From positions 2,995 to 66,994 of the forward strand of contig PLMS01000093.1 in NCBI GenBank assembly GCA_003142575.1: a stretch of DNA of 64,000 bases, in the 5' to 3' direction. This document shows positions 43,183 to 50,185 of the stretch, piece by piece (position 1 is the stretch's first letter; the number at the start of each line of letters is the position of its first letter). The stretch is from Ignavibacteriota bacterium (lineage in GTDB: Bacteria; Bacteroidota; Ignavibacteria; UBA10030). The position numbers and the translations under genes were made by a program. The notes under the pieces were generated by a model, which saw nothing but the letters and a program-made list of their open reading frames with translations, made no database searches and had not been told where the DNA came from.

Positions 43183-43251
43183 TTATTTTTCTATTTACAA
43201 AAAAATGCTGAGTAGTTACCTTTCATTTAGGTATCCAATTTATACAAGAAT

Positions 43252-43287
43252 AAAAAAACCTCCGGCATATAGGGTCGGAGGTTTTTT
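43252..43287 (-). terminator. Bidirectional rho-independent terminator just 3' of the mutase gene.
   Basis: aaaaaaa-cctccg-gcatatagggt-cggagg-tttttt. Confidence 0.65.
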
Positions 43288-43309
43288 ATATGTTGCATGG
43301 AATTGCTTG

Positions 43310-44707
43310 TTAGACTTCTCGGGCTGCTTTCAGCAATGTTTCAACTTTCTCCGGTGTCTCTGCTTCAGCATAAAATCGGATCAACGGCTCTGTGCCTGAC
43401 GCACGGACGAGCACCCACCCATTTTCCACAAAAAGTTTGAAACCGTCTTTGGTTTCAATACGTTGAATAGAAAATCCGGCAATCTGCTTCGGTCCTTTCT
43501 TATAAATAGCAAGAATACGCTGTTTCTCTTTTTCGGTCAGATGTGCATCGTATCGATTGAAATAATGCCATCCGAACTCGCTCATTAATTCATTCACAAG
43601 TTCACTGAGTTTCTTTTTCCGAGTTGCCATAATTTCGGATAGCAGTAATCCGATGTACGTCCCATCGCGCTCTGGCAAATGTCCTTTCACACCAACTCCG
43701 CCGCTTTCTTCTGCCGCAATCAAAATGTCGCGCTCGACCATCAATCGGCAGAGATATTTAAATCCAACCGGTGTCTCGTGCAATACCAAGCCGTACTTCT
43801 TGCACATCTTGTCGATAATTTGACTGACAGAAAACGATTTCGCCACTTCGCCGGTCATCTTCTTTTCTTCGATAAAATATTTCAGAAGAATTGCAAAGAT
43901 CCGGTGTGAATCGACGAAGTTGCCATTCTCATCAAACGCACCAATGCGGTCTGCATCTCCATCCGTGGCAATGCCGATGTCGCATCCATTTTTCACAATT
44001 GCCTCAATCAATCCAGGAGTATTTTGTGGCAATGGTTCGGGATGACTCCCGCCAAATGACGGGTTGAAATCACCGCGTATCGATACCTTCAGCGGAAGAA
44101 TCTGATCCATCACTCCTTGACCTGCACCGTGCATCGCATCGTAAGCAATTTTAATTCCGGACGACTTGATAAGATCAATATTTATTTTACTCTTAATATC
44201 TTTAATGTATATCGAGGTGAAATCAATTTTTTTTATGAGCCCTTTTTCAACCAACTCCTCAAACGACTTTTTGCTTACTACTTTTGACTTTATAACTTTC
44301 TTCAGTTCCTTCTCCACTTTCTCGATTGACTCTGGAAAAGCTGGACCACCAAAGTTTCCCTTGATTTTGAAGCCATTGTACTTCGCTGGGTTGTGGCTGG
44401 CAGTAATGATGATGCCTGCGGCGGCATCGAACTTTTTCGTCAATAAAGAGACCATCGGCGTAGAAGAAATCTTATCTGAGAGAATAACCTTCATTCCGCG
44501 ATTGCCAAGAACTTCCGATACCTTTTCTGCAAACTCCATTGATAGAAAACGCGAATCGTACCCAACAACAATGCCGTTTTTTATTTTTTTGTCTCGCTTG
44601 TAGAAGTTCGCTGTCGCAAGTGCAACCTTCGCGATGTTTTCAAAAGTGAAATCATCGGCAATCACTCCGCGCCATCCGTCTGTACCAAATTTTATGTGTG
44701 GAGTCAT
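43310..44707 (-). CDS. Phosphoglucomutase/phosphomannomutase family protein (phosphohexose mutase).
   Basis: Active-site Ser loop IIITASHNPAKYNGFKI. A four-domain alpha/beta/alpha pattern. Confidence 0.85.
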   Translation of the reverse strand: MTPHIKFGTDGWRGVIADDFTFENIAKVALATANFYKRDKKIKNGIVVGYDSRFLSMEFAEKVSEVLGNRGMKVILSDKISSTPMVSLLTKKFDAAAGIIITASHNPAKYNGFKIKGNFGGPAFPESIEKVEKELKKVIKSKVVSKKSFEELVEKGLIKKIDFTSIYIKDIKSKINIDLIKSSGIKIAYDAMHGAGQGVMDQILPLKVSIRGDFNPSFGGSHPEPLPQNTPGLIEAIVKNGCDIGIATDGDADRIGAFDENGNFVDSHRIFAILLKYFIEEKKMTGEVAKSFSVSQIIDKMCKKYGLVLHETPVGFKYLCRLMVERDILIAAEESGGVGVKGHLPERDGTYIGLLLSEIMATRKKKLSELVNELMSEFGWHYFNRYDAHLTEKEKQRILAIYKKGPKQIAGFSIQRIETKDGFKLFVENGWVLVRASGTEPLIRFYAEAETPEKVETLLKAAREV

Positions 44708-47184
44708 TATAATTTTTCCTTAACTGTAAATAGATTATATTCAGCCAATGATTCGTTGACTGACGTAACTTTCACTTTTTCATTGATCAATTTATCGATA
44801 AGTATCTTACCAGTTTTCAATTTGTTATAATTCGATCTAATTGTATCGAAAAACAAAATTTTCCAACTATCAAGTTCGAATCGTTCCGCAAACATCGGTG
44901 ATTTCATCTTACGCTGAAGCTGTTCTTCCCGCTCCTGAGGTATGATCATATACTTTGGTACATCCTGTGAAAGATTCGATCCGCGAACCAATCCGCTTGT
45001 CATTGTTGTTGTTGATTCTACTTCGAATGCTGCAACAACTTTGTTCCCTTTGATCCAGAGTAAATCGATCATCTCGACGGTTTTCAGGTCTTCAATACCG
45101 CTCACCTTGGAAAGGTCGGCATCAACATAGTTTTGAAGAAGCTTCTTTGCCCCTATAATTCCAGCAGCAAAATCAGTTTGTTCCTTTTTTCCAATCCAGA
45201 TTTTATAACCTAGAGCTTGTCCGACTTCTGCCAACACCGCAATGATTTCGCTGTGCTGACTTATTCGCTCGCGCACTTGTGGCTTTAGCAACCAGAATCC
45301 ACCGGTCACAGGTCGTGCATATTGTTCCAGTGCCTCTTTAATACTCGTGCTATCCGATGTCAGCGAGTTAGGAAATTGAATACTCACAGCTTCCCACGCA
45401 TCTGTGAATGTTACTCTTCCTTTTCCTTGAAGAAGACGCAAAACAGTCTGCTCTACTCGCTCGGTAAGCGGAATTTCTTTCAATCGCGCCACTTGATTCG
45501 GATCCTTGAACCACCACAACTGTCCTTTTGCACCTCCAAGACGTTCTTCTACTAACTTAAACTCTTGGCCGATGTGGTTTTTCAACACCATTTTGACATC
45601 TAGTCCTGTATGCAGATTGGAGAAGTATCCTTGCTTTGCCAAAATAGGATCGATAAAATTGATAACAATGGTATATGGAGTTGGTTCTGCTCTTTCCGCC
45701 AGCAATTGGATTGTGGTATCAACAACAATCTTTTCAAAACGCTTCTCATCAATTTCTTCCGGTACTTCAATGCGAGATGCTTCCGATTGTGGTTTGTGAA
45801 AACGAAGATAAAAATCACCCTGGGCAGAACCAAATGGTTGCAGAAGTGATTTTCCTGATTTTTGTGCAGTAGGTTGATGATGAATTTTTTCAAGCTCAAA
45901 TCCAGCATACGTTCCCGCGCGAATTGTTGCATTTCGCACTTGAAACGTGGGATTATGAAATGTGACAGTCATGTAGCGCCCAAGTTTCAGCGCTGCATGC
46001 ATTCCCTCAAAACTGCTTTTCAATAAACCGTGATAAACATCGAAATCTTTATGTTGCCGTTCATTGCGAACAACTTCTTTAGCAGAAATTGTATCAGTGT
46101 AACCCGTATCCTTTTTCAACCAGGCAGCCCACATATATGAAAGCTCGCCGTATTGGATCGAAGCATCGTATGGAGGATCAGTAAAGATATAATCCACTGA
46201 GCGTGAGGTAAGTTTTGCAAAGACATCCAGACAATCGCCAGTGATTATGCAGATGTCTGCTTTCCCTTCAAGGACTTGCTTGGGGTTCGTGGTTATCTTC
46301 ACATCCTTAAAAAATTTGTTGGATTCCACCTTCGCTTTAAGAAGTCCCTGATGACCAAGTATTGAACTTTCAAATTTATTCCAGACATTTTGTTCCATGA
46401 ATTCAGGCGCAAACCAAAAGCTATGTTGTGTCCACACAGAACTGAATGCGGTTTGATGATTAGTTGGCGCCGGGCTGAGAGCGGGTACCATCGTTGAACA
46501 CAAATGCACCATTGAGGAGAATGCAATTTTCAAGAAAGCTTTTAACTTCTCATCTTCCTCTTTCTCAATGGATTTCATCAGCAAAGCAAGTGCATAGAGA
46601 TTTCGTGGAGTAAATAGTTCATCGATGGATTCATACCGTTCCTTCTTCATAAACGGTGTTCCATCTGAATAATAAAGCGGATTCTTTGGATACCAAATTT
46701 TTTTCTTGTTGAATTCTTCTTCGATCTCTTTTATTCTTTTGAGATCTTTCCTGGTTGGTTTTCCGCCTTTTTCAACAACTTTACCACAGTTTGTGCATTT
46801 GTAACGAAGTTCTTTGAGAGTCAGATTTTTCTTTTCATCCCGATTCCAAATTGAACACTCAACCGGAATATCTTCACCACATTTCCGACATTCCGTTACG
46901 TACAAACCATCGATCTGCGACTTTACATCTTGTTCAACACGGACAAATGCTTCCCGCAAGCGAAGTGGTTCTATATATTCAACAGTAAGCCGTAATATTT
47001 CTGTCGCAATAGGATTGAGATCAACGGCAATCACTTTCCTTCCAAGCTTCAATGCTTCTAGTGCAGTGACGCCACTGCCGGAGAATGGATCCATCACTAT
47101 ACCACCCTTCGGGCAATACGTTTCGATAAATTGCGATATAACATTCCAGGTTTTTCTTCCCCAGAATTTGTGCCAATTGTACAT
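44707..47184 (-). CDS. Circularly permuted N6/N4 DNA methyltransferase with a zinc ribbon (COG1743-like) and an uncharacterised C-terminal domain of about 400 aa.
   Basis: Motif I MDPFSGSGVTALEALKLGRKVIAVDLNP is near the N-terminus. A C4 zinc ribbon follows (CRKCGED...CTNCGK). Motif IV VDYIFTDPPYDASIQYG lies about 300 aa later. The stop overlaps the mutase start codon by 1 nt. GC looks lower than neighbours by eye. I use the internal ATG start (MYNWHKFW), although the track ORF starts at a TTG. Confidence 0.75.
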   Translation of the reverse strand: MYNWHKFWGRKTWNVISQFIETYCPKGGIVMDPFSGSGVTALEALKLGRKVIAVDLNPIATEILRLTVEYIEPLRLREAFVRVEQDVKSQIDGLYVTECRKCGEDIPVECSIWNRDEKKNLTLKELRYKCTNCGKVVEKGGKPTRKDLKRIKEIEEEFNKKKIWYPKNPLYYSDGTPFMKKERYESIDELFTPRNLYALALLMKSIEKEEDEKLKAFLKIAFSSMVHLCSTMVPALSPAPTNHQTAFSSVWTQHSFWFAPEFMEQNVWNKFESSILGHQGLLKAKVESNKFFKDVKITTNPKQVLEGKADICIITGDCLDVFAKLTSRSVDYIFTDPPYDASIQYGELSYMWAAWLKKDTGYTDTISAKEVVRNERQHKDFDVYHGLLKSSFEGMHAALKLGRYMTVTFHNPTFQVRNATIRAGTYAGFELEKIHHQPTAQKSGKSLLQPFGSAQGDFYLRFHKPQSEASRIEVPEEIDEKRFEKIVVDTTIQLLAERAEPTPYTIVINFIDPILAKQGYFSNLHTGLDVKMVLKNHIGQEFKLVEERLGGAKGQLWWFKDPNQVARLKEIPLTERVEQTVLRLLQGKGRVTFTDAWEAVSIQFPNSLTSDSTSIKEALEQYARPVTGGFWLLKPQVRERISQHSEIIAVLAEVGQALGYKIWIGKKEQTDFAAGIIGAKKLLQNYVDADLSKVSGIEDLKTVEMIDLLWIKGNKVVAAFEVESTTTMTSGLVRGSNLSQDVPKYMIIPQEREEQLQRKMKSPMFAERFELDSWKILFFDTIRSNYNKLKTGKILIDKLINEKVKVTSVNESLAEYNLFTVKEKL

Positions 47185-47243
47185 TGGCGTATGGGCTTGG
47201 GGCGGTATTTGGTGGTTAAGATGGATCAATGTTTGAAAAAGAA

Positions 47244-47462
47244 AGGCTGGTGAGAAGTTGGAACTCCTTCCCAGCCATATTTACGTCCTTCACAGTTTAC
47301 AACTTCGCATTCACTGCTGATTTACCGGCGTAGATCGAGTTTGTTCCGAGTTCTTCCTCAATGTGGAGTAATTGATTCTACTTCGAATGCTGCAACAACT
47401 TTGTTCCCTTTGATTCAAAGTGAATCGATCATCTCGACGGTTTTCAGGTCTTCAATACTGCT
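47244..47462. repeat. Chimeric diverged duplicate: enolase 3' end plus 3'UTR hairpin (~48742..48874) fused by microhomology to an internal MTase fragment (~45012..45102).
   Basis: Hand alignment gives about 80 bp matching the last ~23 enolase codons plus the stop, then about 88 bp matching the MTase interior. The junction lies at attgattNtacttcg, which is shared by both sources. There are about 9 substitutions and all are transitions. Confidence 0.7.
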
Positions 47463-47484: not shown

Positions 47485-48627
47485 TTAATTAATATTAAGA
47501 ACAAGCGGTATTGTCACTCGGAATGTCGTTCCTTCTTCTTGCGATGTAGTAAACGAAACTTTTCCATGGAGATACCGCTCACTTAGTAGTTTCATACTGT
47601 ATGTGCCAAGTCCACGGTTCGAACCATTTGTAGAAAATGATCGTTGGAACATTTGCAACTGAACATTTCTTGGAATAAACGATGTATTGTGCACCCAAAA
47701 TTCAACAGATTCGTTGTGATGAGCACAGCCTACTGTAACTATTCCTTTTTCTGGAGATGCTTCGAGTGCATTCTTAATCATATTGCCAAGAACACGTCCC
47801 AATAAAGTTGAGTCGGATACAAACATAATTCGCATTGCATGAAGATCAACGCTGATTGTACGATTTTCCGCAACAATGTGGTGGCGATAGAATTCGCAAA
47901 CTTCTTGTATGCAATCAATTGAATTAATCTCTTTTGGGTTTGCTGCTAATTCATTGCTTTCTGCTGCCGCAAGTTCAACTTGTGCTTTAATTTCATCAAT
48001 AAGTTTTCTCAAAAGATGTTTGATTGTACTCAGACATTCTTTCTGAATTTGCGGATCTTCTTCTTCCATCATCTCAAAGTACCCAGTGAGTCCTCCTGTC
48101 GTGTTTAATACATCATGGAAAAATATTCGTTCTAACGCACGACGGCGTTTTTCGTGACTAATATCGCTAATCGTAAAAATCGTGAATGTTCCATGATAGG
48201 TATTCAGAGGTGTTGCGGTAACTCTCAATTCCAATGGGTCTAAATTTCCTTCTCGCGATATTAAATATTCCTGAACACTTGCATTTCCTTTCTGGCTGAC
48301 AAGGATGGCACGCACAGCACCGCATGTACGGCAATATTCTGTTGTACCGCATCCACCTTCGCTTTCTATTGCATGTATACATCGCAACACTTCGCCATGT
48401 CTTTTCCCATGTGAAGAATGTTCTCCAGATAATTTCATGAATTTGTCCATTGCATGATTGGCAAAAACAATTTGCCTGTGTTCATTCAAAATTACAACTA
48501 TGATAGGTACAGCATTCAGTACTTCACTCTGTAAAGAGTTTTTTATAAAAAAATTAATTTGTTGATTCAAATCTTCTGTGGTTGCACGTTCTGCTGGCGC
48601 ATATTGTGTCGGTAATGATGTAATCAA
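47485..48627 (-). CDS. Cytoplasmic sensor histidine kinase with an N-terminal 4-Cys (C-x10-C-x6-C-x2-C) PAS-like sensor domain.
   Basis: H-box FFHDVLNTTGGL. HATPase GNMIKNALEASPEKG ... GLGTYSMKLL. Cys cluster CIHAIESEGGCGTTEYCRTCG. No TM segment. Confidence 0.75.
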   Translation of the reverse strand: MITSLPTQYAPAERATTEDLNQQINFFIKNSLQSEVLNAVPIIVVILNEHRQIVFANHAMDKFMKLSGEHSSHGKRHGEVLRCIHAIESEGGCGTTEYCRTCGAVRAILVSQKGNASVQEYLISREGNLDPLELRVTATPLNTYHGTFTIFTISDISHEKRRRALERIFFHDVLNTTGGLTGYFEMMEEEDPQIQKECLSTIKHLLRKLIDEIKAQVELAAAESNELAANPKEINSIDCIQEVCEFYRHHIVAENRTISVDLHAMRIMFVSDSTLLGRVLGNMIKNALEASPEKGIVTVGCAHHNESVEFWVHNTSFIPRNVQLQMFQRSFSTNGSNRGLGTYSMKLLSERYLHGKVSFTTSQEEGTTFRVTIPLVLNIN

Positions 48628-48793
48628 GACAATCTTCCTTTATTTTGTAAACTTTTGTCAGCAAATTCTAAGCAATTAAAAAATAATATCAAAACGCGAG
48701 AGAATATTTCCACACAACGAAGCAGTGAAGAGTGCGCCATGTGGCTGGGAGTGTACCTCCCTCCCAGTTTCTTCGTGTTCTTCATCGATATCT

Positions 48794-50185
<1,392 letters not shown>

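Follow-up and report, generated by a model that had tools for sequence, protein, structure and literature searches.

A predicted methyltransferase, winged-helix and nuclease fusion at an enolase-mutase junction of Ignavibacteriota as a candidate single-chain restriction-modification enzyme

Why would a gene for a DNA methyltransferase be lodged between two housekeeping genes, with its stop codon overlapping the start codon of its neighbour? The question is raised by a stretch of 64,000 nucleotides (nt) from an Ignavibacteriota bacterium (contig PLMS01000093.1 of assembly GCA_003142575.1, positions 2,995 to 66,994; hereafter the window), where a protein of 840 residues is encoded between the genes for enolase and for a phosphoglucomutase/phosphomannomutase-family protein (the mutase). 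A first-pass annotation of the window had seen in it an orphan methyltransferase followed by 400 residues of no recognisable family, and had proposed either a domesticated regulatory role or a single-polypeptide defence enzyme. Based on profile searches, structure models and comparison of related loci, we favour the second proposal, with a probability of roughly 55%: the gene is predicted to encode a single-polypeptide enzyme of the restriction-modification type. The methyltransferase is not an orphan in the functional sense, as a candidate nuclease is fused to it in the same chain.

The fusion gene spans 44707 to 47229 on the minus strand, as defined by its open reading frame (ORF) and by full-length homologues of up to 92% identity. 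Its start had been placed at the ATG at 47184, but a start codon (ATG, GTG or TTG) is found exactly 15 codons 5' of the sequence MYNWH in 13 of 13 clade members, and these extra codons encode a conserved peptide, xHLNxQIPPxAHTx, that is kept in other phyla too; the alignments of clade and homologues delimit it at 47185-47229, where it reads (M)IHLNHQIPPQAHTP. The true start is therefore the TTG at 47229, a position kept in the clade, and the stop is the TAA at 44709-44707. Residue numbers in the following count from the ATG at 47184. The lower GC content remarked on earlier is correct in direction and only marginal in size (41.1% against a window mean of 43.9%, with 0.376 at third codon positions, GC3). 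An inverted repeat of 18 nt, 89% complementary (CAATTTATCGATAAGTAT / ATACGTTTCGATAAATTG, at 44788-44805 and 47116-47133), sits within the coding sequence close to both ends of the gene; by a rough estimate, fewer than one such repeat is expected by chance.

The N-terminal half has the features of an amino-methyltransferase of permuted order, and all of its parts lie on the minus strand. An N-lobe (residues 1-94; 46903-47184), delimited by Pfam N6_N4_Mtase and by alignment with RsrI, carries motif I, DPFSGSG, at residues 32-38 (47071-47091) and an invariant D55. It is followed by a C4 zinc ribbon (residues 95-140; 46765-46902) with CRKC at 99-102 (46879-46890) and CTNC at 130-133 (46786-46797), by a mainly helical insert (residues 141-300; 46285-46764), where a match to PglXI over residues 142-450 begins, and by a C-lobe (residues 301-465; 45790-46284), which aligns with RsrI and CcrM and holds the catalytic motif IV, DPPY, at residues 336-339 (46168-46179), 304 residues downstream of motif I. 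In an alignment of 31 homologues, motif I, DPPY and all four cysteines (C99, C102, C130 and C133) never vary; across 43 divergent representatives that are 30-57% identical, the same holds for motif I, D55 and DPPY. The zinc ribbon is modelled as beta strands at residues 96-129 in a full-length AlphaFold model. The Pfam profile N6_N4_Mtase (PF01555) scores 54 bits against a cut-off of 26.7, and the N-terminus of the fusion protein aligns to the end of this profile (positions 169-214 of 221). Likewise, in a profile search of the PDB, which matched RsrI, CcrM and MboIIA, the DPPY region falls on RsrI 45-72, corresponding to the start of the profile, and motif I on RsrI 227-287. Because of these profile and RsrI alignments, the order motif I, zinc ribbon, motif IV is taken as real and as permuted relative to the beta class, where motif IV comes before motif I; here motif I stands at residue 32 and DPPY at residue 336. 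The motif assignments of the first-pass annotation, including the spacing of about 300 residues and the departure from the beta class, are thus borne out.

The best PADLOC model is PglXI, the methylase of BREX type 3 (125 bits, E 6.9e-37, residues 142-450), and several PADLOC models of Type II methylases span residues 5-411. In the type-3 BrxXI and the DUF1156 'BR' methylases the recognition insert is placed after core strand 2 (PMC12839542). Because the layout of the fusion protein matches this arrangement, the zinc ribbon and helical insert probably form a target-recognition domain (TRD) inserted after core strand 2. The proposed likeness to COG1743 holds only in part. The DUF1156 domain (PF06634) has no match in the fusion protein at E<=0.01, the NCBIfam model DUF1156_antiphage (NF042963) reaches 46.5 bits against a cut-off of 1000 and covers residues 29-61 only, that is, motif I, and the PADLOC model DUF1156_MTase reaches 38 bits over residues 30-63. 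To judge from these profiles, the protein is not a member of DUF1156/COG1743, yet its methylase is related to the BREX type-3/DUF1156 clade; the DPPY motif suggests that it is most likely an N6-adenine methylase. Stand-alone homologues of the methylase module (residues 1 to ~500, 25-29% identity, same permuted order) are found on plasmids, where L170 and L171 (NZ_CP035808.1 and NZ_CP147848.1) adjoin genes for an AAA ATPase and a DUF2357 protein. These homologues stand beside McrBC/LlaJI-like genes, and the methylase lineage therefore appears to be generally tied to restriction-type systems. One of the two plasmid loci also has a C5 methylase and a PDDEXK nuclease.

The C-terminal 360 residues, also encoded on the minus strand, are no longer without a recognisable family, and their models suggest two winged-helix domains followed by a nuclease fold of the PD-(D/E)xK type. 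The full-length model (predicted local distance difference test, pLDDT, 71.6) resolves the methylase well and residues 473-571 poorly. As a Foldseek search with the full-length model returned Rossmann methylases only and no nuclease match, the C-terminus was modelled separately: residues 566-825, modelled alone with AlphaFold2 and 30 divergent homologues (29-51% identity), gave a pLDDT of 87 and a predicted template modelling score (pTM) of 0.80. The first winged-helix-like domain (residues 466-571; 45472-45789) shows the order helix-helix-helix-beta-beta at low confidence (pLDDT <50), and the second (residues 572-634; 45283-45471) lies in the C-terminal model of pLDDT 87. The predicted nuclease-fold domain (residues 635-800; 44785-45282), assigned from the model and its invariant residues, is composed of a helix at 635-657, strands at 661-664, 708-712 and 715-722, a helix at 728-735 and a strand at 744-748; D707 (45064-45066) opens strand 2 and E721-V-E723 (45016-45024) closes strand 3, with H644 and R734 as further marks of the domain. 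A weakly conserved tail, set apart by its domain-wise identity of 10-30%, completes the protein (44710-44784).

When the C-terminal model was compared with the PDB by Foldseek, FokI ranked first (E 3.7e-3, 302 columns), followed by many winged-helix domains; the matches of the second winged helix are cullin WHB and forkhead domains, and the Pfam Stork_head winged helix is matched by 15 of 31 family members. Every listed homologue, among them a fragment of 100% identity (P0038), carries a precomputed Pfam assignment to PF27126 'NmeDI_C'. The family takes its name from R.NmeDI, a well-characterised Type II restriction endonuclease that cuts at a distance to either side of RCCGGY and so releases a fragment (PMC2095814). 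Other searches gave less. The BFVD viral fold search returned winged-helix matches only, and the PDB sequence search with the C-terminal profile coiled-coil artefacts only. When 31 C-terminal segments were scanned with a Pfam library lacking PF27126 (E<=5), Stork_head was the one match and no nuclease family appeared. A hand-entered sequence of the FokI cleavage domain gave no match to the C-terminal profile in hhalign, and a literature search on PF27126 found nothing.

Conservation singles out the same region. P572, L585, W631, H644, D707, E721, V722, E723, R734, P749 and W774 are the invariant residues of the C-terminal half across the 43 representatives. D707, E721 and E723 are contained in the stretch VEMIDLLWIKGNKVVAAFEVEST (residues 703-725), which had been suspected of hiding a degenerate nuclease-like core. 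A nuclease-like core is indeed predicted there, but we judge it not degenerate, because the three acidic residues are invariant down to 30% identity and the ratio of nonsynonymous to synonymous substitution (dN/dS) against the closest relative is 0.11 for the nuclease domain, compared with 0.07 overall and 0.02 for the winged-helix domains. The catalytic site of BamHI, D94, E111 and E113, likewise presents D...ExE in place of the usual D...(D/E)xK.

The architecture is far from unique to the window. A word-indexed protein search gave 1395 matches, the top 120 of which, from Ignavibacteriales, Thermodesulfobacteriota and candidate phyla radiation (CPR) bacteria, are nearly all 790-860 residues long and 58-93% identical over their full length. 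An exhaustive HMMER search with residues 470-825 gave 1063 clusters at 50% identity, most of them proteins of 780-870 residues with the module at the same relative position, and the remainder fragments. Short homologues of ~330-360 residues were considered as stand-alone nucleases and rejected, being contig-end or frameshift fragments. In a scan of one genome per GTDB species, the full architecture was found in 160 species from more than 12 phyla, and the best 80 of these 160 loci are all at least 52% identical. The phyla include Ignavibacteriota, Bacteroidota, Thermodesulfobacteriota, Nitrospirota, Nitrospinota and Planctomycetota, and further taxa are Verrucomicrobiota, Elusimicrobia, Rokubacteria, Saccharibacteria and Paceibacterota. 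The distribution is thus sparse yet very wide, the conservation is unusually high and the scatter is due to horizontal transfer. Mean pairwise identity is 25-27% in the zinc ribbon and insert, 37-41% in the catalytic lobes and 30% in the nuclease. Most members carry the JGI label '16S rRNA G966 N2-methylase RsmD', and the NCBI labels are 'DNA adenine methylase' or 'hypothetical protein'.

Only one neighbour is conserved in the family, all others varying between loci. At 58 of 65 loci outside the window clade, a small gene lies directly upstream on the same strand and abuts the methylase start; its product of ~90-110 residues matches Pfam UPF0758_N, the RadC N-terminal helix-hairpin-helix (HhH), with E 1e-16 to 1e-18. 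Examples are L004:9671-10000, L006:9254-9999 (two tandem copies) and L172:7664-7999, with 55 more. Within the window clade the HhH gene was found at 0 of 11 listed loci (at least 70% identity) and was not among the genes called at L001; a hidden Markov model of the partner matched nothing in any frame of the 64-kb window at E<=10.

How the gene came to stand where it does can be read from its relatives. The enolase gene (48794-50179, minus strand; Pfam Enolase_N and Enolase_C) is the upstream anchor of an insertion hot spot, on the other side of which lies the mutase gene (43310-44707, minus strand; Pfam PGM_PMM I-IV). The fusion gene is found between the two in 12 clade genomes, in which identity to the window is 70-91% for the fusion gene, 71-93% for enolase and 36-89% for the mutase. 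A further 80 related metagenomic loci were fetched via the mutase, and both enolase and mutase are visible in 67 of them. None of these 67 has an intact fusion gene; enolase and mutase lie <200 nt apart in 41, and other inserts of 0.2-5.8 kb occupy the site in 26. For instance, L091 has a 96%-identical mutase and an empty site. L137 has a histidine-kinase gene, then codons 695-825 of the methylase only, then the mutase. L090, the DNA of which is 91% identical to the window and bears the same scar (described below), has a lipoprotein ORF of 267 residues (L090:5117-5920) in place of the methylase and retains the last ~27 nt of the methylase ahead of the mutase. Close relatives record at least two losses of the fusion gene, which, because of its absence from the 67 relatives and of the empty site in L091, is regarded as an accessory insertion at a hot spot and not as a lineage-wide housekeeping gene. 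Among the junction inserts noted are those of L002/L010, L090, L092, L105, L109, L111, L120, L136 and others; in L002 a phosphate-selective porin and a TonB-dependent receptor flank the methylase.

Within the window, the junction also holds a histidine-kinase gene between enolase and the fusion gene (47485-48627, minus strand; HATPase_c and PnpS/PhoR-like matches). It encodes a soluble protein with a Cys-rich N-terminal region, has a GC content of 38.4% (GC3 0.28), and is present only in the closest relatives, L090 (3688-4830) and L137 (2-868), being missing from the 12 enolase-methylase-mutase genomes and from the empty-site relatives. The kinase is no part of the methylase system. As stated in the first-pass annotation, no gene for a helicase, a restriction enzyme or a defence-type ATPase is found within ~10 kb of the fusion gene, and no DUF499 ATPase or BREX partner (PglZ, BrxC or BrxHII) within ~10 kb in either direction.

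The overlap with the mutase, which had suggested translational coupling and hence domestication, finds its explanation in the same comparison. The TAA of the fusion gene (44709-44707) and the ATG of the mutase (44707-44705) do share base 44707. However, homology between the window and the empty-site locus L091 resumes at 44731, 22 nt 5' of the mutase ATG, and homology with L090 at 44736; the point of resumption against the empty-site allele falls inside the poorly conserved methylase tail. From these alignments, the last ~22-27 nt of the fusion ORF are seen to be ancestral mutase leader, and since the ORF simply runs into this leader, the TAATG overlap is a by-product of the insertion.

The upstream side of the insertion is more complex. 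Between the histidine-kinase gene and the fusion gene, 255 nt are occupied by a scar made of two parts, both on the minus strand: a 91-nt copy (96%) of methylase codons ~694-724 (45012-45102), with stop codons, at 47372-47462, and a 90-nt copy (93%) of the enolase 3' end (48793-48882) at 47296-47385. The halves are joined via a 14-nt microhomology, TTGATTCTACTTCG, and the run from the enolase fragment through the spacer into the methylase is matched colinearly by the enolase-methylase junction of L008. The scar is most simply explained by recombination of two alleles, an intact one and one that carried the kinase and a truncated methylase; homology would have anchored one side of the exchange, and microhomology would have joined the other. 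It looks like the outcome of homology-facilitated illegitimate recombination between the two. A tandem duplication with kinase insertion was also considered and ranked below this account, as the intergenic sequence differs at once after the two enolase 3' copies. For L137, an equally good origin is a window-like allele that lost the first 693 codons through recombination between the two 91-nt direct repeats (47372-47462 and 45012-45102).

In the restriction-modification-type enzyme that we propose, the N-terminal amino-methyltransferase would mark the host copies of a fixed target sequence and the nuclease would cut DNA without the mark, the fusion securing a 1:1 supply of the two activities. 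The family normally travels as a two-gene cassette with the small RadC-N-type HhH protein, and one Ignavibacteriota clade holds a partner-less copy in the enolase-mutase hot spot, where it is dispensable and has repeatedly been lost or rearranged. What the analysis establishes is the domain make-up, its conservation and distribution, which relatives carry the gene, and the junctions; methylation, cleavage and any part in defence are inferred. Several observations weigh against this proposal. The D...ExE triad has Glu where the canonical Lys stands, and the support for the nuclease fold is moderate. There is no hypervariable domain, unlike in most restriction families with their diversifying recognition domains, and the loci of the family are not consistently in defence islands. 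The HhH partner, retained by almost every other member, is missing from the window clade, whose protein might therefore work differently. The ease with which the gene is lost in relatives argues against strong post-segregational killing, and literature searches turned up no activity report for any family member. Searches of the literature for a BrxXI-like methylase-winged-helix-winged-helix-nuclease architecture likewise gave nothing specific; a paper on Haloferax HVO_A0006 was considered as a precedent and set aside, as it concerns ordinary Type IIG N-terminal nucleases. A bolder version of the proposal, which we put forward tentatively and would not yet bet on, is that the family constitutes a distinct two-component restriction-like system made of the RadC-N-type HhH protein and the methylase-winged-helix-winged-helix-nuclease protein, with a specificity essentially fixed over more than 12 phyla. 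The window clade would then be a natural partner-less derivative, evidence that the large protein can last on its own under purifying selection, and its function at the enolase-mutase junction may be that of homing or of addiction.

The presence/absence pattern bears on the possibility that the protein is a solitary epigenetic or regulatory methyltransferase, domesticated in an enolase-mutase operon, in which the nuclease-like and winged-helix domains serve only as binding or targeting modules. The lack of a separate restriction gene nearby, the tight packing with the mutase, the strong purifying selection, the lack of a hypervariable recognition domain and the shared site in the 12 clade genomes, where the identity of the fusion gene tracks that of enolase, would all fit such a role. 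However, without catalysis it is difficult to account for an acidic triad that stays invariant down to 30% identity, the family is scattered horizontally over more than 12 phyla, and the mutase overlap is accounted for by the insertion junction. Moreover, the gene is missing from all 67 metagenomic relatives, including ones with a 96%-identical mutase, and is lost or truncated in L090 and L137. Solitary housekeeping methylases such as Dam and CcrM are conserved throughout a lineage and have no cognate nuclease, whereas here the 67 relatives do without the gene and a nuclease fold is fused to the methylase. We therefore consider a regulatory role unlikely.

Somewhat different is the idea of a selfish mobile cassette, in which the nuclease would mainly help the gene to spread or to be retained, through homing-like cleavage of empty sites or through addiction, and would not primarily defend the host. 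The cassette is compact, consisting of one or two genes with no integrase, it stands between housekeeping genes in unrelated phyla, and its conservation across phyla is very high; within the clade it is always at the enolase-mutase junction, though most relatives have an empty site, and the upstream scar records microhomology-mediated recombination. Outside the clade, however, the insertion sites differ and no conserved homing site is evident. The junction also gathers unrelated cargo (porin, TonB receptor, lipoprotein, kinase) and may be merely a permissive hot spot, while repeated loss speaks against effective addiction. Such a primarily selfish cassette is, in our view, quite unlikely.

The two winged-helix domains directly before the nuclease invite comparison with an enzyme that senses methylation or takes part in repair, in which they would read the mark and the nuclease would nick hemi- or unmethylated DNA for repair or to tell the strands apart, like a fused Dam/MutH pair. 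Prokaryotic winged-helix domains in fusion with PD-(D/E)xK nucleases are established as sensors of N6-methyladenine (PMC11037411). A DpnI-type winged helix would serve as the model, and the uniform conservation of the family suggests a fixed target. Yet the patchy, dispensable distribution is unlike that of a repair pathway, a scan of ~10 kb to each side revealed no MutS/MutL-type partner, and a methylation-dependent nuclease joined to the methylase that writes the mark would turn against its host, which makes this function very unlikely. That the protein is an RNA methyltransferase, as the JGI label implies, is extremely improbable: the weak match to Pfam Cons_hypoth95 (34.8 bits), the score of 16 bits for RsmD TIGR00095 in the motif I region and the presence of Bud23 and Trm11, with their generic Rossmann fold, among the top Foldseek matches of the whole model are set against best profiles that are all of DNA methylases (N6_N4_Mtase, RsrI, CcrM, MboIIA, PglXI and Type II methylase models), an RsmD cut-off of 117.5 that lies far above the score, the fused winged-helix and nuclease-fold domains, and a distribution that is not universal as for an rRNA methylase. 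The RsmD label, based on a sub-threshold match to motif I, is probably wrong.

The remaining features of the locus are of a general kind. Just 3' of the mutase stop, a hairpin with a GC stem and flanking A and T runs (inverted repeat I2, 43242-43298) probably terminates the transcription unit that runs from enolase to the mutase. A scan for sigma-70 promoters was uninformative (20 matches, with 15.4 +/- 4 expected), and promoters of another kind are probably in use in this lineage. The other neighbours, of housekeeping or regulatory kind, encode an extracytoplasmic function (ECF) sigma factor with its anti-sigma factor, a DUF4097 protein, a hydrolase, a TRAM/U5 RNA methylase, a DUF6485 protein, a tetratricopeptide-repeat (TPR) protein and a 5-enolpyruvylshikimate-3-phosphate (EPSP) synthase.

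If the restriction-modification-type reading is true, the family would represent an abundant, unstudied class of single-chain enzyme, with a domain order reversed relative to Type IIG, a BamHI-like catalytic site, an unusual HhH partner and very high conservation across phyla. With a fixed specificity and a layout like that of FokI and NmeDI, such enzymes could serve as a new reagent, and the natural partner-less clade offers a direct test of the role of the HhH partner. For annotation, the labels 'DNA methyltransferase' and 'RsmD' on proteins of ~840 residues hide a probable nuclease, and a stop/start overlap with a housekeeping gene is no evidence of domestication. The enolase-mutase junction itself is a hot spot in the lineage, the alleles of which record gain, loss and microhomology-mediated recombination.

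The component domains are all of known kinds. To our knowledge, a BrxXI-like methylase, two winged helices and a C-terminal D...ExE nuclease, with the usual HhH partner, are not combined or ordered in this way in any characterised single-chain restriction-modification type; among those known to us or found here, the combination and order are new. Type IIG/IIC enzymes such as MmeI, BpuSI and Eco57I begin with the nuclease, have a methylase of the gamma class and end in a TRD that changes with specificity. Like them, the fusion protein would unite an S-adenosylmethionine-dependent amino-methyltransferase and a PD-(D/E)xK nuclease in one chain, with no need of a separate restriction gene; unlike them, it runs from an N6_N4-type methylase, with the TRD inside the fold, through two winged helices to a C-terminal nuclease and has no hypervariable domain. 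FokI (Type IIS) and R.NmeDI share with it the winged-helix-type DNA-binding domains followed by a separate C-terminal cleavage domain, but they are nucleases only, with methylase genes apart, and FokI has D...DxK where the fusion protein has D...ExE. The resemblance to BamHI is one of motif only, D...ExE, no sequence or fold match having been obtained. The BREX type-3 BrxXI/PglXI and DUF1156 'BR' methylases have the same N6_N4-like core with an insert after core strand 2 (PMC12839542); they carry no fused nuclease, whereas the fusion protein is without a DUF1156 domain and without BREX, DUF499 or helicase partner genes. Finally, the stand-alone plasmid methylases of LlaJI/McrBC-type loci share the permuted order of the methylase module, but the effector there is a separate AAA ATPase with a DUF2357 protein, whereas here it would be the fused winged-helix-nuclease half of the same polypeptide.

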